Below are positions 13,419 to 61,796 of a stretch of 64,000 nt of DNA, piece after piece (the first letter of the stretch is position 1; the number at the start of each line of letters is the position of its first letter). The translations under genes were made by a program, and so were the position numbers. The notes beneath the pieces were generated by a model. It was given only the letters and a program-made list of their open reading frames with translations. It had not been told where the DNA came from and did no database searches. Source of the stretch: Candidatus Dojkabacteria bacterium (GTDB lineage Bacteria > Patescibacteriota > Dojkabacteria > B142 > OLB20); the NCBI GenBank assembly GCA_035444565.1, contig DAOMOX010000001.1, positions 450,335 to 514,334 on the forward strand, in the 5' to 3' direction.

Positions 13419-13679
13419 CTACTCTATATTACCTTGCTCTAAAGCGTTGCCGGTATAACCTATTGCTCCAGCTGTTATCAGGAGTCCTGCGGCAGAAGCC
13501 GCTATAGGGACGGGATTGTCAGTGAATATTGTAAGTGCTAAATTGCCGACTCCAATTAAAAGAGCCACGCCCAGTTCTTTTGTAAGACGAAGTCTTCTTT
13601 CTTTGCATATTTTCATGGCTTCGACACATCCAATGATGAGACCAGAAGCTGCGCCAACAATTTCAGGTAAATTCTCCAT
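13419..13679 (-). CDS. small membrane protein, hypothetical
   Basis: 86 aa with 2-3 Gly/Ala-rich helices. Confidence 0.3.
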   Translation of the reverse strand: MENLPEIVGAASGLIIGCVEAMKICKERRLRLTKELGVALLIGVGNLALTIFTDNPVPIAASAAGLLITAGAIGYTGNALEQGNIE

Positions 13680-13689
13680 TATAATAATT

Positions 13690-14013
13690 TTAATTATTTA
13701 AAACCTCCCAAGCAATAATCCCACCTTTCAAGTCATAGACTTCTTTGAAACCAATTGTTTTCATAATGTCTAAGACTGCTTTCGTACGACTGCCAGTTCT
13801 GCAGTATATGAAATAAGGGTGGTTTTTGTCTAGGTTTTCGAGTTGTTTTTCAAAATCCACTGAATAAAAATCAAAATTGATAGATCCATGTAGATGTTGT
13901 TCAGCGTATTCGCCTGGAGTCCGGATATCAATAAGAGTCCCTTTACGGTCTTCGTGCATCGCTAGAAATGTCTTTGGATCAAGCGAAGAAAAGTTAAGTG
14001 ATGAAGTAATCAT
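13690..14013 (-). CDS. single-domain rhodanese (sulfurtransferase)
   Basis: Active-site loop YFIYCRTGSRTK (CX5R) and the ...GGIIAWEV C-terminus. Confidence 0.8.
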   Translation of the reverse strand: MITSSLNFSSLDPKTFLAMHEDRKGTLIDIRTPGEYAEQHLHGSINFDFYSVDFEKQLENLDKNHPYFIYCRTGSRTKAVLDIMKTIGFKEVYDLKGGIIAWEVLNN

Positions 14014-14041
14014 AATAAAAAATTTATTTAATTAATTGAAA

Positions 14042-21714: not shown

Positions 21715-22191
21715 ATGAATAAGGACCTAACAATTGATTTTGGTGCCTCAATGTTAAATATTCGTGTACTTCTCCTGATTAAATACAAAGGGGGATATTT
21801 GTTTGAGTTAAACACAGATGATTACTATTTTGCTATTGGTGGTAGAGTTAAGTTCGGAGAGTCATCCTCAGAAGCTGCAAAGAGAGAATTGAAAGAAGAG
21901 TTGGATTATAATGATTTAGAATTAGAACTAATTGGTTTAATCGAGAATTTCTTCGTAATAGGTGAAAAATCGGTTCATGAGGTGAACTTTGTTTATGGTG
22001 GGGCGATAAAAGATGAAATTGACTTCAATAATTTAAAATCAAATCATAAAGGTTTTAGCTCCCTTTTACCAGAAGATGTTATGACTAGCGATGTAAGACC
22101 AAAAGTATTAAAAGAGCTTATCCCAAAGCTATTAAGTAATTATGACGAGATTGGAGAGTTTATACATTTGGTGAATAGGGATTCAGCATGA
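21715..22191 (+). CDS. Nudix-fold hydrolase (divergent)
   Basis: The Nudix box is GRVKFGESSSEAAKRELKEELD (G-x5-E-x7-REUxEE, with D in place of the last G). Confidence 0.45.
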   Translation: MNKDLTIDFGASMLNIRVLLLIKYKGGYLFELNTDDYYFAIGGRVKFGESSSEAAKRELKEELDYNDLELELIGLIENFFVIGEKSVHEVNFVYGGAIKDEIDFNNLKSNHKGFSSLLPEDVMTSDVRPKVLKELIPKLLSNYDEIGEFIHLVNRDSA

Positions 22192-22842: not shown

Positions 22843-22944
22843 TTACAATCCTACCTACACAAGTCTTTGAGTAGGCATGGAAGCGCTTTCGACTTCACCC
22901 CACCTTGGCAGTGCAAGCTCAGCCAATACATTAAAAATACTAAA

Positions 22945-38004: not shown

Positions 38005-38074
38005 CTATCGTCAATAATAGATTAAATATGAAATTTGATTGTACTATATCACTAAATGTGTAAAACGGAAAGAC

Positions 38075-38310
38075 ACCGGATAGTCACTCCGTGCTTCACT
38101 TACCATACCAGAAGAGGATCGCTGCCTCCGCTGTCTCTCCGGGGTTTAACCGCGGAGTCCCGTTATTATTCTCACATCAACTTATAGGATAAACGGGATC
38201 CCGTGCTTCCCTCCCTTCCGGCAGGGCAGGCAACCACGGGATGACCTCAGGGGTCGCTTTCGCCATCCACTTATCCTACCGTAAGGGAGGGACCGCGGAG
38301 TCCCGTAAAT
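38075..38310. repeat. GC-rich double-hairpin repeat element cluster, locus 1
   Basis: Copies of module B (gtctctccGGGGtttaaCCGCGGAGtcccgttattattctcac..aacttatagg) and of module A with an inserted segment (gatCCCGTGcttccctcccttccggcagggcaggcaacCACGGGatgacctcagggg). Confidence 0.6.
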
Positions 38311-38382
38311 CCCACAAGTAGTAATTGTAATAACAACCTCATAGTTATATATTATTATTACCTACTTTTTATCAATATAAAT

Positions 38383-39042
38383 ATGAATAAATCGTTAAGT
38401 TTATTCTTTGTCGCTTTGTTTTCCACAATCCTAGTATTGCCCGTAAGTGCTATAGCTCCAACAAGGCCTACGGAAAGGGCAACAGTTCAGCAAACTCAGG
38501 CTCCCAAACCCACAAAACCTACTGATGAAGAGAAGTTGCTTTTAAAAGAGGAGAGAGAGGCGAAAATCCAGGAACTACAATGTGAAGCAGCAAAAACTCG
38601 AACTGAATCACAAAAAAAGATATATGAAGCACAACAGTTAAGATATGGGAATAGATACGTTAATATGTTAACTAGACTAAACAGTTTATTGGAAAAGTTG
38701 GATGAGCGTGAAATTGACGCTTTGGACTTACCAGAATATGTGAGTGAACTTACTACAATGGTGGAGGGATTTAATTTAGAATTGAAAGCTCTTATAGGAA
38801 AATTTGACGAGATGAGACCAGTAACTTGCGAAACTTCTGGTGAGGAATATGTGAAAATTCTTAGAGAAGCAAAAACAGAAAGTGCGCAGTTAAGAACCCA
38901 ATCTAGAGAAATTAATCAATATTTCTTGAACACAATTCTTCCTGAATTGAAGAGAGTAAGGGCTCAGGCCGAAGAAACAGTAACAACTCCAACTGAAGAA
39001 GTTGAAGTAGAACCTACAGAGACAAATATTTTAAATAATTAA
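38383..39042 (+). CDS. secreted coiled-coil protein, hypothetical
   Basis: Signal peptide, a Pro/Thr-rich segment, and long heptad-like helices. Confidence 0.45.
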   Translation: MNKSLSLFFVALFSTILVLPVSAIAPTRPTERATVQQTQAPKPTKPTDEEKLLLKEEREAKIQELQCEAAKTRTESQKKIYEAQQLRYGNRYVNMLTRLNSLLEKLDEREIDALDLPEYVSELTTMVEGFNLELKALIGKFDEMRPVTCETSGEEYVKILREAKTESAQLRTQSREINQYFLNTILPELKRVRAQAEETVTTPTEEVEVEPTETNILNN

Positions 39043-39050
39043 TTTTAAAT

Positions 39051-39341
39051 ATGAGTAATAAAAATATCGCAATATTAGTAATCTTCTTCTTGTTTATCGC
39101 AGCTATGGTTGGAGTAGTGATGTATATGATGCGAGATGTGATTGTCGAGACGGAGAGTAGTAATCAAAATCAAGTTGAGCCAACAGTAGTAGTGGAAGAA
39201 GTAGACCAGACTGAACCCACAATCGAGACAACCATCCCACCAGAAGAAGATGCTTCTAAAAGTATCGATGATACTATAAATGAAATAGAGAAAGGGTTAG
39301 ACGATTTGGACGTCGATAACGATTTACCCGAGGTAAATTAA
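39051..39341 (+). CDS. small membrane-anchored acidic protein, hypothetical
   Basis: One TM and an E/D/T-rich tail. Confidence 0.4.
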   Translation: MSNKNIAILVIFFLFIAAMVGVVMYMMRDVIVETESSNQNQVEPTVVVEEVDQTEPTIETTIPPEEDASKSIDDTINEIEKGLDDLDVDNDLPEVN

Positions 39342-39357
39342 AATACTCATAGAAGAT

Positions 39358-39960
39358 CTAAGAGGTTTCTAAATATTTCCTGTATTCTTTGTCATTATTA
39401 ATGAGTTCGTCAATCGATGTTTTAATTATTTTTGTTCTATTTGTACCTCGATTGAACTGCACCCAATCCAAATAATTCCGTTCATATTGATTTAAAACCA
39501 GATTAAATCGAGTTTTGTTATTATAATCCTGATATTTATTAATAAAAGCAGTGATAATTTTTTCTATGTTGTTTGGTTTGTATTCGGCAATTTCTAAATG
39601 TTCAGAATCAATTCCATGGATGAACATTTGATTAAAGTATCTATGTTTCTTCCCTTGCCATAGAACTAGGGTAGGTTTTTGTTTTTGGAGAGCTAGTGTG
39701 ATTTGATGACCAGTACTGAAGTTTGACACTGTGTCTTCAATAATAACTAATTGTGCTTGATTGATTGCTAATACACATTTTTTATAGATTGCTTTAATAT
39801 CTCTGACATTTAAATCCCCATCATTAATTTTTTCGCCGGTGTGTTTGAGCCAATCTCTAGTTAAAGTGTGATTCTCTTGAACGAGATAATCTCTAATTGC
39901 GAAATATGTTTTCTTGTATCTGTTGAATTCCACAGTGGAGGCGGTGAAGTATATTTTCAT
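39358..39960 (-). CDS. hypothetical protein, possibly with a nucleoside 2-deoxyribosyltransferase-like fold
   Basis: MKIYFTAS... and VIIEDTVSNFSTGHQITLALQKQKPTLVL are reminiscent of kiYlAg...D.GT..E.G.A...kP. This is a weak call. Confidence 0.3.
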   Translation of the reverse strand: MKIYFTASTVEFNRYKKTYFAIRDYLVQENHTLTRDWLKHTGEKINDGDLNVRDIKAIYKKCVLAINQAQLVIIEDTVSNFSTGHQITLALQKQKPTLVLWQGKKHRYFNQMFIHGIDSEHLEIAEYKPNNIEKIITAFINKYQDYNNKTRFNLVLNQYERNYLDWVQFNRGTNRTKIIKTSIDELINNDKEYRKYLETS

Positions 39961-40037
39961 ATGTGGATATTATGTGCATAATGTGCATATATTTTACGAC
40001 TCTGTTATTTTATAATCAAATTAATTAATAAATACTC

Positions 40038-40544
40038 ATGGAAAAAATTGATGAATATCTGGATAAAAACCTGAATTATGTTCCTGCTGTTGCTGGATTT
40101 ATGGTTAAAGATGGGAAGGTATTACTTGGGTTGCGAAAGAAAGTTTCGAATGATTTGGGTAAAGACCTTTATGCAGGAATAGGGGGGAAAGTTGAGGTGA
40201 ATGAATCTACGGATGAATGTTTAGAAAGAGAAATATTAGAAGAAATTGGAGTAAAAGTCACCAAATATCAAAAACTTGGCCAATTAAAATATATTAATCC
40301 GCATAATCCCAAGTGGGATATGGAAGGACATTTCTATTTAATTAGAGAATGGGAAGGCGAACCGCATGAAACAGATGTTATAAAGCCAATCTGGTTTGAC
40401 ATCGAAGAAATCCCAACTGATAACATGTTTAGTGATAATAAATATTGGCTAGACTTGCTCTTCGCAGGGAAGAGCTTCGAAGGAGTATTTTTATTTGGTA
40501 GCGAAAAAAGTCAGGTGGAGGAGTATAGACTCATAGAAATATAA
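40038..40544 (+). CDS. Nudix hydrolase (MutT-like)
   Basis: The Nudix box GIGGKVEVNESTDECLEREILEEIGV is a perfect G-x5-E-x7-REUxEExGU. Confidence 0.75.
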   Translation: MEKIDEYLDKNLNYVPAVAGFMVKDGKVLLGLRKKVSNDLGKDLYAGIGGKVEVNESTDECLEREILEEIGVKVTKYQKLGQLKYINPHNPKWDMEGHFYLIREWEGEPHETDVIKPIWFDIEEIPTDNMFSDNKYWLDLLFAGKSFEGVFLFGSEKSQVEEYRLIEI

Positions 40545-40697
40545 TTCTACAGACAAAATTCTAAAAAATAATCTTCAAGAGTACTCCTATGACTGCAAGT
40601 TGTTTCGCTAGACATCTTAGTGATACTTAATTATCATAATTTATGAATATAGAAATATTAGTTAATTTAATTTCTTATATAGTTAGGTAAAAATAAC

Positions 40698-41600
40698 ATG
40701 AAACACTTCGTTAAACTCAAGTTGTTATTCTTATTATTTATATTTGGTTTATTTTACATACTCTTCGTATATTTCAACAGCACCAACAAAGATATTAAGA
40801 ATCCACAAACAGCATTCGAGTCTTTGCAGTATCATACATGTCCTTATACATTGAAAGTGTCTGGGAAAAATATATCTGCAGATTGGATAGGTGGGGCTTA
40901 CATAGTAGGCGAGGAAGGATACTATTGGATAATTAACAATTGTGAAAAATTTATTGAGTCTAGTCCTCCCATACTCTCAAATTTAGGAATTGCCCCAATT
41001 GATTTCGAAGCCTTCGATCCTGCTACTTTAATGGCTGGTGCTTTCAGGTTCGAACAACCCAAAGATGACCGCAAACCAATTAGTTCTTTTGGAGAAGTAA
41101 AAGAATATAATTATAACTATTCTCTTTCTTTTGATTTTCTCGAACCGGGAACAGATGTAATAGCAGCATTGGATAGTGAAGTACGTGATATTTCTTTCGA
41201 TATGATTAGTTCGAATTATACATTAATATTATCTTATAACGACATTTATCAAATATATTATTCTGGTGTTTTGGACTTGCAAGTATCTGAAGGTGAAAAG
41301 GTTAAAGCTGGTCAAGTATTAGGAAAGCTGGGATTAAATGATGAAGGGGCCTTAGCAAACTTCCAGATAAGAATCTCTAAAGAAAATTTAATTAACGACT
41401 CTACATTATATTATTGTCCCCTTCAATTATTGCCCTCCGAAACCAAAGCAGAATATGAATCTAAATTAAAATTATTAATGGAAGAGTGGGAAAATTTTAT
41501 AGATAATTCAATGATTTATGAAGAGTTGGATTATTCTATACCTGGTTGTATCAATGAGTTTAAACTATACAGACCAGGGCCTGGTCCCGTTCCTCTCTAA
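40698..41600 (+). CDS. membrane-anchored M23/LytM-like domain protein (possibly catalytically degenerate)
   Basis: N-terminal TM. GTDVIAALDSEV ... VSEGEKVKAGQVLGKLG ... FQIRI resembles the M23 G.pV.A...G.V / aGq.iG.vG / HLHFEI blocks, but the His residues are replaced. Confidence 0.4.
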   Translation: MKHFVKLKLLFLLFIFGLFYILFVYFNSTNKDIKNPQTAFESLQYHTCPYTLKVSGKNISADWIGGAYIVGEEGYYWIINNCEKFIESSPPILSNLGIAPIDFEAFDPATLMAGAFRFEQPKDDRKPISSFGEVKEYNYNYSLSFDFLEPGTDVIAALDSEVRDISFDMISSNYTLILSYNDIYQIYYSGVLDLQVSEGEKVKAGQVLGKLGLNDEGALANFQIRISKENLINDSTLYYCPLQLLPSETKAEYESKLKLLMEEWENFIDNSMIYEELDYSIPGCINEFKLYRPGPGPVPL

Positions 41601-41725
41601 TTCAACTCTTCGAGATAAGTGATTTAACTACATTTATTCTATAGAGAATTAAAGTGTGAAAAAGGTTGGCTCGTATGAGAATTAATTTATATGGTAATAT
41701 TTAATTTACTTTTAAATTTTATAAA

Positions 41726-41968
41726 ATGTCTAGTAAGGTTCTAAATTTTTTTGAATCGGCTGGTTTTGGTGTTCTTATGGTTGTGATATTTTGTCTTATA
41801 TATTTTATCTCGACTCCTTTTGTTAAAGTATTTATGGGTGATATCAGAGAGTTTGACCAAGTGCAGACCAGTACAGTTTTAACCACAGTATATATAATGC
41901 TATTAATACTATCCCCACAAGTTTGGTTCTTCTCCACGTTATATTTCTTCGATAGAAATAAAAAATAG
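41726..41968 (+). CDS. small membrane protein, hypothetical
   Basis: 80 aa with 2 TM. The antisense ORF 41719..42003 is judged less protein-like. Confidence 0.25.
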   Translation: MSSKVLNFFESAGFGVLMVVIFCLIYFISTPFVKVFMGDIREFDQVQTSTVLTTVYIMLLILSPQVWFFSTLYFFDRNKK

Positions 41969-42009
41969 GAATTTAGAGAAATCAAGGCAATGATATAACT
42001 CATGTTAAA

Positions 42010-42417
42010 ATGAGTAAATTATTATCATTCATGGACCAATCAGAATTCGAACAACTTGTTAAGAAAGGAATAGAGGAAATTCCTCTGGAATTTAGACAGA
42101 AATTAGACAATGTTGCCATCTTCGTCTCGCCTTACCCAAATCACGAACAACAAATGAAGATAAATTTAAGACCGGGCTGGACTTTGTTTGGACTTTACGA
42201 AGGTGTGCCACTGACTAAAAGAGGTACAAACTACGCAATGGCTATGCCAGACAGGATTACAATTTTTCAAGGGCCGATTCAAAATGCTACGCGAGGAGAT
42301 GTTGATAGAATGCGTGATGTTGTGAAAAATACAGTTTGGCATGAAATCGCACACCACTTTGGGATGGATGAGAATGAAGTGCGTGAGGCTGAGAGGAAGA
42401 GAGGTGTGGGGTATTAA
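42010..42417 (+). CDS. Zincin_1 (DUF1025)-family small HExxH metallopeptidase-like protein
   Basis: VWHEIAHHFGMDENEV is the characteristic C-terminal HEIxHH motif of this ~130-aa family. Confidence 0.6.
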   Translation: MSKLLSFMDQSEFEQLVKKGIEEIPLEFRQKLDNVAIFVSPYPNHEQQMKINLRPGWTLFGLYEGVPLTKRGTNYAMAMPDRITIFQGPIQNATRGDVDRMRDVVKNTVWHEIAHHFGMDENEVREAERKRGVGY

Positions 42418-42424
42418 TTCACAC

Positions 42425-42800
42425 CTAAATAGTAATCGGGATCCCGTGCTTAAAGCACGGAATGACTGCAGGGGCTTTTGACTCTCCTCGTCACTTCGTA
42501 GTTCATCCCGAAAAGGAAATGAACGCCTTCGCGTCTCTCCGTGGTTTAACCGCGGAGTCCCATTTTTCTTCTCACTTGAACTTATAGGTCCTACGAGATC
42601 CCGTGCTTAAAGCACGGGAAGACCTCAGGGGCTTCGACTCTCCTCGTCACTTCGTAGTTCGTCCCGAAAAGGAAATGAACGCCTCCGCGTCTCTCCGCGG
42701 TTTAACCGCGGAGTCCCGTTTTTATTCTCACACGAGCATAAAGGGTATACGGGTTCCCGTGCTTAAAGCACGGGAAGACGGCGGAGTCCCGTACATCCAC
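42425..42800. repeat. GC-rich double-hairpin repeat element cluster, locus 2 (two full tandem units of ~166 bp plus a partial third)
   Basis: Unit = gatCCCGTGCttaaaGCACGGGaagacctcaggggcttcgactctcctcgtcacttcgtagttcgtcccgaaaaggaaatgaacgcctccgcgtCTCCGCGGtttaaCCGCGGAGtcccgtttttattctcac. The units start at ~42428 and ~42594. Confidence 0.7.
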
Positions 42801-42863
42801 TCAATCGACTTCTCTCCATCATGAAATTAGGAGTATAATCAAATAATAATTAATCTTCGCAAA

Positions 42864-43154
42864 ATGAAAAACGAAAACAAATATTGGTTCAAAAGAAAAA
42901 GATATGGATATGGCTGGACACCATCGAGTTTAGAAGGATGGCTGTTAATAGTAGCTTACTTGATTATAATTATTATGGGAGTCATATTATTCTCCGATAA
43001 ACTTGAATCAGGCGATACTTTGTATTCAATTGGATATCTAATTTTCATCATTACAACTACTTCAATCTTGTTACTTTTCACTGTCCGAAAAGCTCCGAAA
43101 GGCAAATGGAGATGGGGGTGGAAAGAAGGTGATGATAAAAGTGAGGATTTTTAA
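42864..43154 (+). CDS. small membrane protein, hypothetical
   Basis: 96 aa with 2 TM and a basic/acidic tail. Its stop overlaps the Nudix start (TAAATG). Confidence 0.4.
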   Translation: MKNENKYWFKRKRYGYGWTPSSLEGWLLIVAYLIIIIMGVILFSDKLESGDTLYSIGYLIFIITTTSILLLFTVRKAPKGKWRWGWKEGDDKSEDF

Positions 43155-43604
43155 ATGCAAACGAAAGATAACGCTCATTTCCACATCGTCACAGTTAAAG
43201 CATGGGTGAAGAAAGGCGATAAATATCTTTTGGCGAGAAGAGGAATGAGTGAAGTTCATATGCCAGGAGTTTGGTCCATTCCGGGCGGAAAAGTCGATGA
43301 CGATGGCGAAACAGTGAATATCTTGCAAGAAACTCTCAAAAGAGAGGTACTCGAAGAAGTTGGTGTTGAGATTACTGACGAAATTGATTTAGTTTACAAT
43401 AACTCCTTCAAACGTTCTGACGGAGCATCGGTAGTGGGACTAACTTTCCTTTGTCATTGGAAGACTGGTGAAGCACAGCCATTGGAGGAAACTTTAGAAG
43501 TAGGTTGGTTCACATTGGATGAGTTGATTGACAAGGAAGATGTAGCGGATTTTTTGAAGAGGGAGATAAGAGCTTTGGCAACTTTTGTGAATTCCTTAGA
43601 ATAG
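43155..43604 (+). CDS. Nudix hydrolase
   Basis: The Nudix box is GGKVDDDGETVNILQETLKREVLEEVGV. Confidence 0.75.
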   Translation: MQTKDNAHFHIVTVKAWVKKGDKYLLARRGMSEVHMPGVWSIPGGKVDDDGETVNILQETLKREVLEEVGVEITDEIDLVYNNSFKRSDGASVVGLTFLCHWKTGEAQPLEETLEVGWFTLDELIDKEDVADFLKREIRALATFVNSLE

Positions 43605-43883
43605 CCCACCTTTTGGCATTCCAGCCTCGGGTTTTCGCTTTTTCTTCTTGCCACATTTAACTTCCACAACTGGTGTAGAATTAAGCATATTCAAAGAATC
43701 CTCTGTTATGGTGTTTAAAACAATACATGCTTCTGTCCCAAAAGCTCCTAATTTTTCATATTTATCTCCTCCCCCCAATAACCAATCAGTAAGTCTAATG
43801 AAACATCTCCCGACAGGCAATATCCCTAGTTCAGTTGTTGGTGGATCAAGTTCTCCCATGAAAAATACGAAATTAAATTGCAT
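43596..43883 (-). CDS. small hypothetical protein with a basic C-terminus
   Basis: 95-aa ORF ending KCGKKKKRKPEAGMPKGGLF. It is chosen over the antisense 43648..43893 ORF on composition only. Confidence 0.2.
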   Translation of the reverse strand: MQFNFVFFMGELDPPTTELGILPVGRCFIRLTDWLLGGGDKYEKLGAFGTEACIVLNTITEDSLNMLNSTPVVEVKCGKKKKRKPEAGMPKGGLF

Positions 43884-43920
43884 TATACTATAGAAATTAG
43901 GTTTTTAGAGCTTTGTTAAC

Positions 43921-44095
43921 ACTTCGCGTTTCTCCGCGGTTAACCTGCCCTGCCGAAAGGGAGGGACCGCGGAGTCCCGTTATTATTCTCACTCGAACTT
44001 ATGGGACATACGGAATCCCGTGGTTAAACCACGGGATGACCTCAGGGTCCAGATTGCTTGCTTAAAGCACGGAATGACCACGGAGTCGAACATTC
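43921..44095. repeat. GC-rich hairpin repeat element cluster, locus 3 (upstream of the heliorhodopsin gene)
   Basis: tCTCCGCGGttaa[cctgccctgccgaaagggaggga]CCGCGGAGtcccgttattattctcac..aacttatggg, then CCCGTGGttaaaCCACGGGatgacctcaggg, then cttaaagcacggaatgacc. Module B carries an inverted copy of the locus-1 insert. Confidence 0.55.
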
Positions 44096-47200: not shown

Positions 47201-47662
47201 ATGAACACTTTCAATAACGTAATATTCGGACAAAAAGCTTTTATCATTAACGATGAAGGGGAGATTTTAATTGTTAAACGCGACAAAGAATTAATTTATG
47301 TAAATAAATGGGATGTGCCAGGTGGAAAACTAGATAATGATGAAACTTTGTTTGAGGCCCTGAATCGTGAAATTAAAGAGGAAGTTGGTCTAAAATTAGA
47401 TAAAATAATCTGTACATTATCCAGCTCGAAGTTCAAAGGTAAACTTGGAAATGACCTAATTGTATATAGAAATATTTATTTATGTAGTGCCAAAGGAAAA
47501 GTAGAATTAAGCGCAGAACATTCTGAATATAAATGGGTAAAGCCAGAAGATTTGTCTAATTATGAATTTGCAGATGACAAAGATTTAGCTGATATCATAA
47601 AGTCGCTTCCAGAAATTCTATTAAATTTAAATACAAATATTTCATATTCAAAATTAATTTAA
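47201..47662 (+). CDS. Nudix hydrolase
   Basis: The Nudix box is GGKLDNDETLFEALNREIKEEVGL. Confidence 0.65.
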   Translation: MNTFNNVIFGQKAFIINDEGEILIVKRDKELIYVNKWDVPGGKLDNDETLFEALNREIKEEVGLKLDKIICTLSSSKFKGKLGNDLIVYRNIYLCSAKGKVELSAEHSEYKWVKPEDLSNYEFADDKDLADIIKSLPEILLNLNTNISYSKLI

Positions 47663-58511: not shown

Positions 58512-61500
58512 TTAGTCAGGCCACCTACTATACATAATTGTTTCCGCTTCTCCTTCTCTTTTCGGTAAAGACTGCCAGATTTTCTCAGTTAGAAATGGAA
58601 TAAAAGGATGTAACAATTTCAGATATGTTTCTAGAGAATATAGTATCAACCATTGGGCTGTAAATCTTGATTTTGACTCCTCTTCTGATGTGTTGATTGG
58701 GTTTCCTTCACGATCTTTTGTGTAAAGTCTAGTTTTGATTTTTTCCAGATAAATATCAGCGAAATAATGCCAGAATGATTCATAAAGTTCGTCAGCGGCG
58801 ATTCCAAATTTAAATTCGTTCAATCTCCTGGTAGTTTCTTCAATTAGTTTTTCAACATGATCCAACATTTCAGTATCATCTTGTGTGAACTCTAATTCGG
58901 ACCTGTCCGAATTAATCAATTTGTCAGCTTTATCTTCGATGTTAAAGAGTACAAACTTGGATGCATTCCAGATTTTATTGCAGAAGTTGCGGTTAGATGA
59001 TACTTTCTCTTCATAAAGACGATAATTTTGACCGGCTGAGTTACCTTTGACAAAGCTATATCTCAATGCATCTGTTCCATATTTTTGCATCATTTCGAAA
59101 GGATCGATACCATTACCTTTGGATTTGCTCATTTTAATTCCATTCTTATCAAGTACCAACCCATGTAGATACACGTCTTTGAAAGGAACAATTTGCTCGT
59201 CGGAAGTATTAGGGTTTAGCTTCTTCGCTCTATACGGATTGAGTAACATCATTCTGGTCACCCAGAATAATAAAATATCCCATCCAGTTTCCATAACTTG
59301 GGTAGGGTAGAATTGCTCAAAATCACCTTCCTTCACCATCAAAGTTAGATATGGCCATTGTCCAGATGAGAACCATGTATCAAGTACATCTTCGTCTTGA
59401 AGCCATTCTGATTTTATTAAGGAATAATTTCGAAGTTCCAGATTTTTTGGGTCATTTTCTCTAGATTGCTCAGGAGTTAAATTATTTAATTTTCTCTCGA
59501 ATATTCTAATTATGCCTGCATGTGTCACAACCAATGGGTTTTTATAGCCTGAGGTTTTCAACCAAATGATAAACTCTTCAATTCTCTTTTCGACTGCTTC
59601 TATTTTCTCGCCTTTTTCAAGCTCTGGTTGGAAATCCATATTATTTTTTGAAGCCTCTTCAGGATGTTTGTTAGTAAATTCTTCCCAAGTAAGCCCTTCT
59701 AAGTTGCCGAAATTCCTTTCTTTGAGTAAATCGTTCTCGATGATTTTCAATCCCAATTTCTCATTAACAATTTCAGCAGTTTGACGTGCTCTTTTTAATG
59801 GAGAGGTGATAATCACATCATATTTAGAATTGAGTTTTTCAATTGCGTTTTGAGCTTGTTTTTGACCGATGTCATTTAAATCGATATCAGTGAATCCATG
59901 GAATTTACCAAGTTTGTTGTATTCTGTCTCTCCATGTCTCAGGACTGAAATATTGATTTGTCCATTTAGATCAGAGTTTGAGTTGTTAGGATTATCATGT
60001 CCTACATGTATTAATCCCTCATAATCTTCGGGATTATTTATAATTTTGTTTCCAATTTTCTCTTTTACTTCACCTGTTTGGGTGATGTATTGCGTATGTT
60101 CGCCTTTATACCAGACAGGAACTCGATAACCCCACCATAGTTGTCTCGTGATGCACCAATCTTCCTGACTTTCCATCCATTGTAGATATGTTTTCTTTTT
60201 GCCCTCAGGCATGATTTCAGTTAATCCTTCTTCAACTAATCTTTTTGCTTCTCTTTTTAATGGTTCTGTATCCACAAACCATTGATAGGAGATAAGCGGT
60301 TCTATAGGGTGTTTGCATCTCTCACAAATTCTAATTCTGTTTTCATAATTTTCGTCTAAGTATACTAGCATTCCATTTGCTTTCATGTCTTCTAACATCA
60401 CTTTTCGTGCTTCCTTTACATTCATACCTTCATATTTGCCGGCTAGGTGATTCATTTTGCCATTGAAGTCTATGACCTGCTTCTCTGGGAAAGCTTCCTC
60501 TGGATGACGTTTGGCTATATCCCAATCTTCCGGGGAATGTGCGGGAGTGACTTTTACCATGCCAGTTCCGAAATTTTCATCGACAGCGTCATCGGCGATA
60601 ACATTTATTTTGGATGTGCCAAGTAAAGTTTTAACTTCAAATTCTTTTCCAACATACTCTTTAAATCTCTCATCGTCTGGGTCAACTGCAAGTGCTGTGT
60701 CTCCGAACTTGGTCTCCGGCCTGACTGTGCCTAGAACGAAACCATTAGTATAGAATTTGTCGTCAGGGAAGTCTTTGAAGTTTATAAAGTGAATACCCGC
60801 ATCTCTTTTTTTTGATTCAGCAACTTTCCAAAGCTTTGTTAATTCTTGATTTAAATCTCCCTCAAAATCAGGGTTAGAAAGTATTAAGCTGAATTTTTTA
60901 TTTAGCCTCATCATAATTGCATACGGTTTGCCGACTATTACATCTCCTTTAGTTAACTTTTCGTTATCATAACCAATACAATGTACAACCATTTCTCCAG
61001 TTTCAATTTGGTATCCGCCATCAATTGCGCCTATTGCAAATGGATAAATTTCTTTACCGTCCGGGCTTGATGACCTCTCAAAAATCCATTTAACTTCTTC
61101 CATTTGTGAGAAGTCATTTTTAATTCTTATCGCATCTTTTTCGGGATCTACAAATCCGTATTTAAAGTAGAAGAAAGGGGAAACTGAGTCTTTGAACTCC
61201 GTGTCGATATCTGCAAGAGCAGACTGACATCTGGGGCACCAGTTGATTATCCTTTTATCGCGATATACGAGCTTGTCCTCATACATTAACTCGAATGCCT
61301 TTAGAACTTCGTCTACAATCTTGGGTTCTAGAGTAAATAATTCTCTATCGAAATCTGCAGATAAACCAATATTTTTTTCCTGCCTACGAGCATTTTCAGA
61401 GTTTTTGATACAAAAAGCATAACAACGTTTATAGAATTCTTCTCTGCCTAATGCTTTCTTTGATAATCCTTCTTTTTCGAGTTCTTTCTCAAAAACTACT

Positions 61501-61796
61501 TCAGTCAAAATTCCTGCGTGGTCTTTTCCAGGTAGGAGCAAAACCTTTTTTCCCCTCATACGGTTGTATCTACCCATCAAATCTTGATAGGCATATCCAG
61601 ACATATGACCTAGGTGCAGATTCCCATTTGCATTTGGAGGAGGTAGGACAATTGAAAAAGTTTCTCGATCTATGTCGTTGGCGGTCGATAATTTTTTTTC
61701 AGATTTGTATTCGGGCGAATAGAATCTATTCTCAAGCCAAAAAGCTAAAATTTCCTCTTCAGTTGATTGTGGTTGATATGGTCCTTTGGGAAGCAT
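58512..61796 (-). CDS. valS: valyl-tRNA synthetase with an inserted histidine-phosphatase (PGAM-like) domain
   Basis: HIGH (NANGNLHLGHMSGY), the editing domain TVRPETKFGDTALAVDPDDERF, WWGYRVPVWY, DVLDTWFSSGQWPY, and KMSKS (GIKMSKSKGN). It is 1094 aa, against ~880 typical. Confidence 0.95.
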   Translation of the reverse strand: MLPKGPYQPQSTEEEILAFWLENRFYSPEYKSEKKLSTANDIDRETFSIVLPPPNANGNLHLGHMSGYAYQDLMGRYNRMRGKKVLLLPGKDHAGILTEVVFEKELEKEGLSKKALGREEFYKRCYAFCIKNSENARRQEKNIGLSADFDRELFTLEPKIVDEVLKAFELMYEDKLVYRDKRIINWCPRCQSALADIDTEFKDSVSPFFYFKYGFVDPEKDAIRIKNDFSQMEEVKWIFERSSSPDGKEIYPFAIGAIDGGYQIETGEMVVHCIGYDNEKLTKGDVIVGKPYAIMMRLNKKFSLILSNPDFEGDLNQELTKLWKVAESKKRDAGIHFINFKDFPDDKFYTNGFVLGTVRPETKFGDTALAVDPDDERFKEYVGKEFEVKTLLGTSKINVIADDAVDENFGTGMVKVTPAHSPEDWDIAKRHPEEAFPEKQVIDFNGKMNHLAGKYEGMNVKEARKVMLEDMKANGMLVYLDENYENRIRICERCKHPIEPLISYQWFVDTEPLKREAKRLVEEGLTEIMPEGKKKTYLQWMESQEDWCITRQLWWGYRVPVWYKGEHTQYITQTGEVKEKIGNKIINNPEDYEGLIHVGHDNPNNSNSDLNGQINISVLRHGETEYNKLGKFHGFTDIDLNDIGQKQAQNAIEKLNSKYDVIITSPLKRARQTAEIVNEKLGLKIIENDLLKERNFGNLEGLTWEEFTNKHPEEASKNNMDFQPELEKGEKIEAVEKRIEEFIIWLKTSGYKNPLVVTHAGIIRIFERKLNNLTPEQSRENDPKNLELRNYSLIKSEWLQDEDVLDTWFSSGQWPYLTLMVKEGDFEQFYPTQVMETGWDILLFWVTRMMLLNPYRAKKLNPNTSDEQIVPFKDVYLHGLVLDKNGIKMSKSKGNGIDPFEMMQKYGTDALRYSFVKGNSAGQNYRLYEEKVSSNRNFCNKIWNASKFVLFNIEDKADKLINSDRSELEFTQDDTEMLDHVEKLIEETTRRLNEFKFGIAADELYESFWHYFADIYLEKIKTRLYTKDREGNPINTSEEESKSRFTAQWLILYSLETYLKLLHPFIPFLTEKIWQSLPKREGEAETIMYSRWPD
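59487..59960 (-). other. histidine phosphatase (phosphoglycerate-mutase family, branch 1) domain embedded in valS
   Basis: ISVLRHGETEYNKLGKFHGFTDIDLNDIGQKQA...YDVIITSPLKRARQTAEIV...ERNFGNLEGLTWEEF...AVEKRIEEFI...PLVVTHAGIIR is the full RHG...R...E...H catalytic set. It lies between the ValRS WWGYRVPVWY and DVLDTWFSS blocks. Confidence 0.8.

Follow-up and report, generated by a model that had tools for sequence, protein, structure and literature searches.

What are the GC-rich hairpin repeats that interrupt three intergenic regions in an otherwise AT-rich stretch of a Candidatus Dojkabacteria genome? We addressed this question in a window of 64 kb (the whole stretch analysed, positions 450,335 to 514,334 of GenBank contig DAOMOX010000001.1, assembly GCA_035444565.1, numbered from its first letter), whose heliorhodopsin is 100% identical to proteins named Candidatus Dojkabacteria. 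A first-pass annotation of this DNA had described the repeats and offered three explanations for them: mobile palindromes of the REP or MITE type, a multi-copy small-RNA family, or a cis-regulatory leader shared by the genes downstream. Sequence comparison with related genomes and with a system published for Neisseria leads us to a more specific answer, namely that the repeats are probably Ssn-related motifs (SRM), arranged in arrays of putative nuclease targets that resemble the NTS/dRS3 palindromes.

The three loci (38072-38306, 42437-42792 and 43921-44095) have a GC content of 53-57%, against about 30-38% in their surroundings, and the sequences first described there were all recovered at their coordinates. 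The 14-mer CCGCGGAGTCCCGT, with up to 2 mismatches, matches six times in the window, always on the + strand and always within these loci (0.04 matches in shuffled sequences), and hairpin A is present four times. No further copies were detected in the remaining 58 kb, either by nhmmer with a hidden Markov model of the hairpin module or with a covariance model of the core unit described below.

The two hairpins of the arrays, A and B, represent the same oriented module in opposite directions, agreeing at 23 of 31 positions. A reads ACGGGAT-CCCGTGC-TTAAA-GCACGGG-AAGAC, the reverse complement of B reads ACGGGAC-TCCGCGG-TTAAA-CCGCGGA-GAGAC, and the consensus of the module is GTC(W)-YTCC..stem..loop..stem..GGAR-TCCCGT or, in a wider reading, (C/G)GTC(W)YTCC...GGARTCCCG. 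Stems are 8 bp long in both modules (9 bp when a pair between the two outermost loop bases is counted), as initially stated for B but not for A, to which 7 bp had been assigned. The unit that recurs across genomes is a polar core of 91 nt, B-spacer-A, in which both modules measure 31 nt and the spacer 29 nt (28 in one core), and not the A-middle-B arrangement that had been taken as the repeat. An alignment of 13 distinct cores, drawn from five lineages, spans 95 columns and needs just one gap, of 1 nt, in a single row; the core scores 20-34 bits higher on one strand and is therefore polar. Four cores were found in the window with the covariance model, 17 more in the first set of relatives and 3 more in a further relative, L033; the overall count for relatives is at least 24. 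At the level of the module, 23 sequences align without gaps, with GAC (GTC on the motif strand) invariant in 23/23. At the G corresponding to the C that follows the palindrome, conservation is at least 90%. The reported loop insert of about 25 nt was confirmed as a 23-nt segment present in opposite orientations at 38208-38230 and 43944-43966 (96% complementary, inverted repeat I3). It is seen in either orientation because A and B are inverted copies of one module; it marks one long-loop variant of that module, and it folds as a nested hairpin. The arrays and their parts are the following:

38072 to 38306, + strand: locus 1 array, with the insertion point after ...aaaacggaaaga, between a divergent 243-aa gene (-) on one side and the coiled-coil gene (+) on the other; a degenerate half-module (GTCACTCCGTGCTT, 38083-38096) is followed by one full core, and a partial long-loop module closes the array.
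38131 to 38247, + strand: core 1 (covariance-model match of 78.2 bits, E 5.9e-16), with B at 38133-38163 (motif on the + strand), the 29-nt spacer at 38164-38192 and A at 38193-38245 (motif on the - strand); in the computed fold of this long-loop module, the loop of A carries the nested 23-nt hairpin TCCCTCCCTTCCGGCAGGGCAGG at 38208-38230.
38275 to 38306, + strand: partial long-loop B module, 3' half only, CCTACCGTAAGGGAGGGACCGCGGAGTCCCGT (repeat family D6, inverted repeat I17).
42437 to 42792, + strand: locus 2 array, beginning 20 nt past the Zincin_1 stop codon, with a period of 156 nt and the layout A, middle (63 nt), core, middle (61 nt), core, 3' fragment of B.
42531 to 42625, + strand: core 2 (98.3 bits, E 1.1e-20), with B at 42533-42563, spacer at 42564-42592 and A at 42593-42623; an orthologous core is present in relatives L022 and L024.
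42603 to 42824, + strand: open reading frame (ORF) beginning MLKAR..., which reads through the array wholly inside repeat units and is not a gene.
42687 to 42781, + strand: core 3 (98.6 bits, E 9.8e-21), with B at 42689-42719, spacer at 42720-42748 and A at 42749-42779.
43921 to 44095, + strand: locus 3 array, with the conserved ATTATAATATA box of the heliorhodopsin gene downstream; it contains one core with a long-loop B, followed by a partial A at 44059-44084.
43926 to 44042, + strand: core 4 (80.0 bits, E 2.3e-16, inverted repeat I3), with a long-loop B at 43928-43980, spacer at 43981-44009 and A at 44010-44040; the insert of B at 43944-43966 is the reverse complement of the locus 1 insert.

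In agreement with the tandem structure first proposed, locus 2 consists of a direct repeat of 152 nt, its copies 88% identical, and a partial third unit. Its "middle" sequence (61-75 nt) is a decayed 5' half of the long-loop module, as intermediate forms in relatives L011 and L024 show. The suspicion that the MLKAR... reading frames were artefacts of the repeat also held, as the repeat-derived ORF had 0 homologues in a search of 5.8 billion proteins.

The evidence that structure is maintained in these repeats comes from covariation, the check that had been suggested for the two stems, and compensatory changes were found in both hairpins. In the alignment of 23 modules the 8-bp stem is 97.3% paired and 5 of its 8 pairs have changed on both sides, while in the alignment of 13 cores the two local hairpins are 98-99% paired and 7 of 16 pairs covary; none of 500 shuffles reached the observed pairing percentage or the covariation score. 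Cross pairing between B and A, at 81.6%, was no better than the shuffled mean of 82.5% (442 of 500 shuffles were at least as high), and a helix between the TCCCGT and ACGGGA flanks would be 84.6% paired with 0 compensatory changes. The strong local covariation and the lack of any between B and A therefore identify two independent local hairpins as the maintained structure. The modules are stable when folded computationally as single-stranded DNA. Within one genome the inner stems include GCGG/CCGC, GTGC/GCAC, GTGG/CCAC and AGGG/CCCT, a variety that argues for a hairpin over a double-stranded protein operator.

The oriented module closely resembles the NTS motif CGTCATTCCCGCGMAVGCGGGAATCYRG, an oriented extension of the dRS3 palindrome that has been generalised as SRM (Chenal et al. 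2025, PMC11893778). Aligned against this published motif, the reverse complement of A reads GGTCATTCCGYGS...SCRCGGAATCCCG and B reads CGTCTCTCCGCGG...CCGCGGAGTCCCG. In Neisseria, the motif is bound solely as single-stranded DNA, and cut a few nucleotides upstream, by SsnA, a 94-aa protein with a single GIY-YIG domain that does not bind RNA; cleavage needs three nucleotides before the palindrome, binding is most reliant on the C after it, and the loop is dispensable in its identity and tolerates extensions (PMC11893778). In the array modules, the positions needed by Neisseria SsnA vary little or not at all, and a nested hairpin of 23 nt is accommodated in the loop. The published SRM pattern, HGTCWYN(0-2)YYVSBRHN(0-5)WNVSBRGN(0-2)RNCYNB, defined for hairpin-forming inverted repeats of 20-50 nt, matches two B modules in the window, those of cores 1 and 3 (0.1 matches in shuffles), and 12 array modules in the scanned relatives; 14/14 matches are of the B type. 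The A modules and the GTGC/GTGG variants still share GTC(W)YTCC...GGARTCC with B. We also observed an almost canonical Neisseria NTS, TGTCATTCCCGCGTATGCGGGAATCCAC, at L020:4176-4203, in a distant Dojkabacteria lineage without double-hairpin cores.

A candidate partner nuclease is encoded in sister lineages. Relatives L032, L033 and L029 carry a gene of 86-94 aa with GIY-YIG as its only Pfam domain, and the same protein (MCA9380139.1) is encoded in GCA_020429395.1, which represents the L025 lineage, where loci 1-3 hold arrays. Compared with the ssnA locus of N. gonorrhoeae the identity is 50%, with tblastn E values of 1e-20 in the collection and 5e-27 in a pairwise search, which passes the published threshold for homologues (E < 1e-10) of the Ssn family, whose members are single-domain proteins of cd10448; the protein also shows a weak match to a UPF0213 (YhbQ-type) structure. 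The gene is flanked on one side by a GTCACTCC-TGC-GTAG-GCA-GGAGTCC hairpin and on the other by 1-4 copies of GGAYTCC-TGC-YTTC-GCA-GGARTGAC, and these hairpins share their outer stem and flanks with modules B and A. The complete unit consists of GTCACTCCTGCGTAGGCAGGAGTCC, the gene, and GGAYTCCTGCYTTCGCAGGARTGAC in 1-4 copies (L033:10914-11338 and 13590-14014; likewise in L032). Its 425 nt recur at 93.9% identity 2.7 kb away, and contig L029 ends within a further copy. In L032 and L033 the unit occupies two intergenic sites that hold cores in L027, and one of these sites, rfbD-rfbB, is also filled in L006. The 29-nt spacer has just a TAGGAA and weak similarity in common with the ssnA unit's inner edges, on the strength of which we claim no homology.

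This arrangement recalls the gonococcal one. At the single locus matched (L034, NZ_CP119142.1:1880219-1883473), ssnA lies amid 11 NTS within 3.2 kb, in +/- pairs with about 58 nt between the two motifs, a convergent-pair design like that of the Dojkabacteria core. More generally, Neisseria motifs are extragenic and clustered near membrane-protein genes, and ssnA is typically flanked by motifs (PMC11893778). With regard to the comparison locus itself, NZ_CP119142.1 and NZ_CP119140.1 are 2.17-Mb N. gonorrhoeae records that are filed as plasmids in PLSDB but look like chromosomes, and no canonical start codon lies in the ssnA frame of L034 ahead of a TTG at 1558, the ATG at 1494 being out of frame, so that the gene may be disrupted at its N-terminus.

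The likeness between the two systems therefore extends over several levels: an oriented hairpin, some 30 nt long, that is preceded by GTC(W), has YTCC...GGAR as its outer stem and is followed by TC(C); an extragenic position near genes for membrane or surface proteins, +/- pairing and a loop that tolerates change; and a gene of about 94 aa with a single GIY-YIG domain, motif-flanked in related genomes. They differ in host, since the words "Patescibacteria" and "Candidatus" are absent from the main text of PMC11893778, and in several details. The Dojkabacteria modules have stems of 8-9 bp and 5-nt loops, with an inner stem that varies by compensatory change; their pairs are separated by a fixed spacer of 29 nt rather than about 58 nt; they include the long-loop variant with its nested hairpin; their copy number is apparently low; and the ssnA-like gene is multi-copy, stands at sites that elsewhere hold gene-less cores, and is missing from the window. 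The organisation of the arrays is also reminiscent of the Neisseria NIMEs, which Parkhill et al. in 2000 reportedly described as intergenic mosaics whose repeat units, 50-150 bp long, are bordered by short palindromic repeats. Common features are the palindrome-flanked intergenic mosaics, the variable unit number and the association with variable genes, whereas the spacer and "middle" sequences differ and the Dojkabacteria arrays are built from the polar 91-nt core.

How the arrays behave over time can be seen by comparing orthologous sites. The relatives compared at loci 1-3 were syntenic Dojkabacteria loci (labelled L0xx) collected through heliorhodopsin homologues, among which L022/L023 correspond to DTUPAT2 (GCA_021463645.1). 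Both empty and filled sites, a comparison that had been suggested at the outset, were found among them:

Locus 1: filled in the window and in L024/L025; empty in L022/L023 and in L011.
Locus 2: 2.3 units in the window; B-spacer-A-linker-long-loop B in L024/L025; B-spacer-A-middle-B in L022/L023; A-middle-B in L011.
Locus 3: filled in the window; one simple core in L024/L025; empty in L022/L023 (38-nt intergenic region) and in L011.

In lineages whose heliorhodopsin is just 73-76% identical, no module was found within 10 kb. On a shorter time scale, an activated-sludge contig that is 99.3% identical over a flank of 2.7 kb lacks 42416-42524 (an indel of 109 nt). Five independent contigs end inside arrays, and public contigs begin at 43926 and 44015 within locus 3. 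No target-site duplication could be defined at the junctions of loci 1 and 3. Where arrays are shared, they can be compared with their neighbourhood (flanking-gene figures exclude m80, a short membrane-protein gene 64.6% identical to that of the window in L022 and 100% in L024):

L022: array 97.4% identical to the window array; flanking genes 85-94%; adjacent non-repeat intergenic sequence 74%.
L024: array 89%; flanking genes 68-79%; adjacent non-repeat intergenic sequence 75%.
L011: array 83-87%; flanking genes 70-82%; adjacent non-repeat intergenic sequence 82%.

Orthologous arrays are thus better conserved than the genes around them, in parallel with the observation in Neisseria that genes adjoining dRS3 are unusually divergent (PMC11893778).

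Several further observations concern the surroundings of these loci. The 80-aa membrane-protein gene of L024 (L024:8059-8301, against window 41726-41968) is 100% identical amid neighbouring genes at 68-79%, which is a recombination mosaic beside the arrays and hints that recombination tracts may end there. To the right of locus 1, lineages differ in the order of their genes. Upstream of it by about 4 kb, L024 encodes a large serine recombinase of 608 aa (Resolvase + Recombinase, cut by the locus end; L024:1-1256) where the window has another gene set. At the Zincin_1 stop (window 42415-42425), the codon is TAA in the window and L011 and TGA in L008, L022 and L024; in these last three, array sequence (gactgcc...) abuts the last Zincin_1 sense codon and provides the stop. 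The segment between the Nudix gene and the locus 3 array (43605-43920, about 300 nt) is missing from L011, L022 and L024, and its 95-aa ORF (43596-43883, - strand) has no Pfam match and is unrelated to the small array-side ORFs found elsewhere. Such ORFs (95 aa in the window, 95 aa in L027, 94 and 98 aa in L030, 98 aa in L016) are likewise mutually unrelated.

The family is not confined to this region. An exact 19-mer scan located an array between rfbD and rfbB on Dojkabacteria contig L006, and this second, unlinked region of rhamnose and polysaccharide genes contains the family in several lineages:

L027: four arrays spread over 20.9 kb.
L029: two arrays.
L033: two sites with three cores between them.
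L030: scars only, including a collapsed half-module at rfbD-rfbB.

Here the genes downstream of arrays (rfbB, glycosyltransferases) are unrelated to those of the window, and some arrays point the opposite way to the genes beside them or are placed between convergent ones. The statement that all copies share one orientation is accordingly true of the window but, given the inverted arrays in relatives, describes no property of the family. In the same region, the RfbD just upstream of the L006 array (L006:2044-2859, - strand) is truncated to 271 aa, against 295-299 aa in its closest homologues, by a deletion or frameshift of about 70 nt, which may be an assembly error because contig coverage is about 2.4x. 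Outside these loci, the exact 19-mer scans returned the DTUPAT2 orthologue and one chance match in Pirellulales among genome contigs, three activated-sludge contigs among metagenomes and none among viral contigs; since stems vary, an exact 19-mer under-counts the family. A blastn search of the repeat unit against phage and plasmid collections gave no match.

Taken together, these comparisons point to a model in which a Dojkabacteria SsnA would recognise the array modules. B carries the motif on the + strand and A on the - strand, making B-spacer-A a convergent pair, and the predicted cuts would fall on the + strand just 5' of B and on the - strand just 5' of the reverse-complemented A, that is, at both outer edges of the core. 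These pairs are concatenated into intergenic mosaic arrays, as in the NIMEs. The SRM-ssnA-SRM unit would be their IS-like (insertion sequence-like) source and the 91-nt cores its gene-less miniatures, and recombination between modules may have spread and resized them. Bacteria of the Candidate Phyla Radiation (CPR) have tiny genomes and are believed to rely on taking up DNA. By analogy with Neisseria, incoming single-stranded DNA cut at the arrays could shape recombination around the variable genes for surface and membrane proteins that they flank.

A number of observations weigh against this identification. Template switching can produce compensatory changes in palindromes even when there is no selection. 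The strict SRM pattern recognises only B modules of the GCGG type, missing the A modules and the GTGC/GTGG variants, and Neisseria SsnA is inactive when the palindrome sequence is changed with the hairpin kept (PMC11893778), whereas inner stems vary freely within one Dojkabacteria genome. The inner stem of the hairpins beside the ssnA-like gene (TCCTGC, 4-nt loop) is shorter than that of the array modules, the copy number seems modest (tens at most, far under the hundreds in Neisseria), and no ssnA homologue was found within the 64-kb window. We nevertheless consider the SRM identification probable. A stronger version of it, in which the SRM-ssnA-SRM unit is an active IS-like mobile element with the 94-aa GIY-YIG nuclease as its "transposase" and the 91-nt cores as miniatures, seems to us doubtful. 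It fits the 425-nt repeat of the unit, the occurrence of unit and cores at the same sites and the contigs that break inside ssnA, and the NTS-ssnA-NTS layout has itself been remarked upon as IS-like, with mobility raised there as a hypothesis only (PMC11893778). If true, a class of mobile elements in an ultra-small episymbiont genome would be driven by a type of nuclease not otherwise known to mobilise bacterial insertion sequences.

Among the explanations offered at the first pass, that of REP- or MITE-like elements came closest, in view of the multiple loci, the polymorphism in presence and in unit number, and the contig breaks. In its classical form, however, with REP, REPIN or BIME sequences mobilised by a RAYT (HUH Y1) transposase, it is highly improbable. 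The inverted pairs of GC-rich palindromes with a spacer, the extragenic mosaic arrays and the polymorphic occupancy among relatives are all expected of such elements, and the published ones (PMC3116915, PMC2817692, PMC5581495) further resemble ours in alternating orientation, in single-stranded hairpins recognised by a small repeat-flanked nuclease, and in vertical persistence. But no Y1 transposase was detected when 60 ORFs of the window and 8 from relatives were scanned against Pfam, nor in the gene tables of about 370 kb of relatives, and the same Pfam scans revealed no other transposase; the long REPIN-type hairpin of B with A shows no covariation and palindrome-palindrome pairing is not maintained; there is no conserved GTAG; and the flanks are of the NTS/SRM type, next to a gene for a GIY-YIG rather than an HUH Y1 protein. 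A literature search on REP or MITE elements in Patescibacteria/CPR found nothing relevant. MITE-like repeats (ERIC, Correia/NEMIS, BOX, RUP) and the GC clusters or double-hairpin elements of AT-rich mitochondria (PMC3184786, PMC4478555, PMC2800124) share with the arrays their palindromic, non-coding, intergenic units of 90-160 nt, inverted ends, GC-rich islands and polymorphic presence; they differ in that no target-site duplication is identifiable here and the ends are hairpins with a specific nuclease recognition sequence. Simple local duplication, or an integron-like attC or other recombination-site array without a dedicated protein partner, could account for three loci lying within 6 kb, for gene content that differs among lineages between and beside the arrays, and for deletions between repeats. 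Yet it had been proposed that only copies confined to these three loci and without stem covariation would reduce the repeats to local duplications, and we found the opposite on both counts, as the family recurs in the second region in several lineages and its stems covary. An attC site would have R''(RYYYAAC)...R'(GTTRRRY) ends, one per cassette ORF, in the same orientation and with an integrase nearby, whereas the array ends read GTCT.../...AGAC, both orientations occur, no R'/R'' core sites or integrase were found, and there are no ORFs between tandem units. This makes the explanation extremely improbable.

The remaining readings place the function at the level of RNA or regulation. A small structured RNA family, or an element acting at transcript ends as a terminator or stabiliser hairpin, would agree with the strong stem covariation, the very stable predicted folds, the short U-run after B in four copies of this region and the better conservation of arrays than of flanks. 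The U-run, which had suggested an intrinsic terminator, is however restricted to copies of this genomic region, is missing from most family members and begins 6 nt past the stem. Searches of the arrays against Rfam 15 gave no match, whether at the gathering threshold or with E values relaxed to 10, no promoter-like site was found inside the arrays, and the unit phase chosen for the postulated transcript is not conserved. Furthermore, arrays are found in either direction with respect to transcription, orthologous sites can do without the element, and its conserved unpaired positions fit the recognition code of a DNA nuclease that does not bind RNA. On this evidence we regard an RNA-level role as unlikely, with only a small chance of being correct. 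A shared leader, attenuator or riboswitch-like element for the coiled-coil gene, the membrane/Nudix pair and the heliorhodopsin was suggested by the position of all three window arrays upstream of + strand genes in the same orientation. Conserved TATAAT-like boxes, however, lie between each array and the downstream ATG, across lineages and whether or not an array is present (agTATAATcaaataataatt for the 96-aa membrane gene, ATTATAATATA for heliorhodopsin and ccctgTATAATaatccc for rfbB), and they therefore place the arrays upstream of likely promoters. Orthologues of the coiled-coil and heliorhodopsin genes lack the element in L011, and heliorhodopsin in L022 has an upstream intergenic region of 38 nt. 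These empty sites, together with the conserved boxes, do not support a leader, and neither do the unrelated downstream genes in relatives or the arrays that are inverted or lie between convergent genes; we consider this reading very improbable.

Other features of the window deserve brief mention. It encodes PilN/PilO-like proteins, a tRNA-Ser at 22944 as the sole ARAGORN match, and four Nudix hydrolase genes in 64 kb (21715-22188, 40038-40544, 43155-43604 and 47201-47662), two of which directly adjoin arrays. On the - strand at 58515-61796, a 1094-aa class I aminoacyl-tRNA synthetase (tRNA-synt_1 + Anticodon_1) contains an unusual fusion, with a histidine-phosphatase domain (His_Phos_1, E 1.1e-42, residues 618-793) inserted between its catalytic and anticodon-binding parts.

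If the SRM identification is correct, the SsnA/SRM system, which combines a site-specific nuclease for single-stranded DNA with hairpin targets in the genome, would extend to the Candidate Phyla Radiation. It would also provide new candidate pairs of nuclease and motif, with different stems and a loop that tolerates insertions. For annotation, the GC-rich islands described here would be a warning, as they appear not to be genes, small RNAs or riboswitches. Finally, the Dojkabacteria genomes offer a comparative series at one site, from empty to cores, arrays, scars and ssnA units, which could show how such repeats spread, a question left open by the work on Neisseria.

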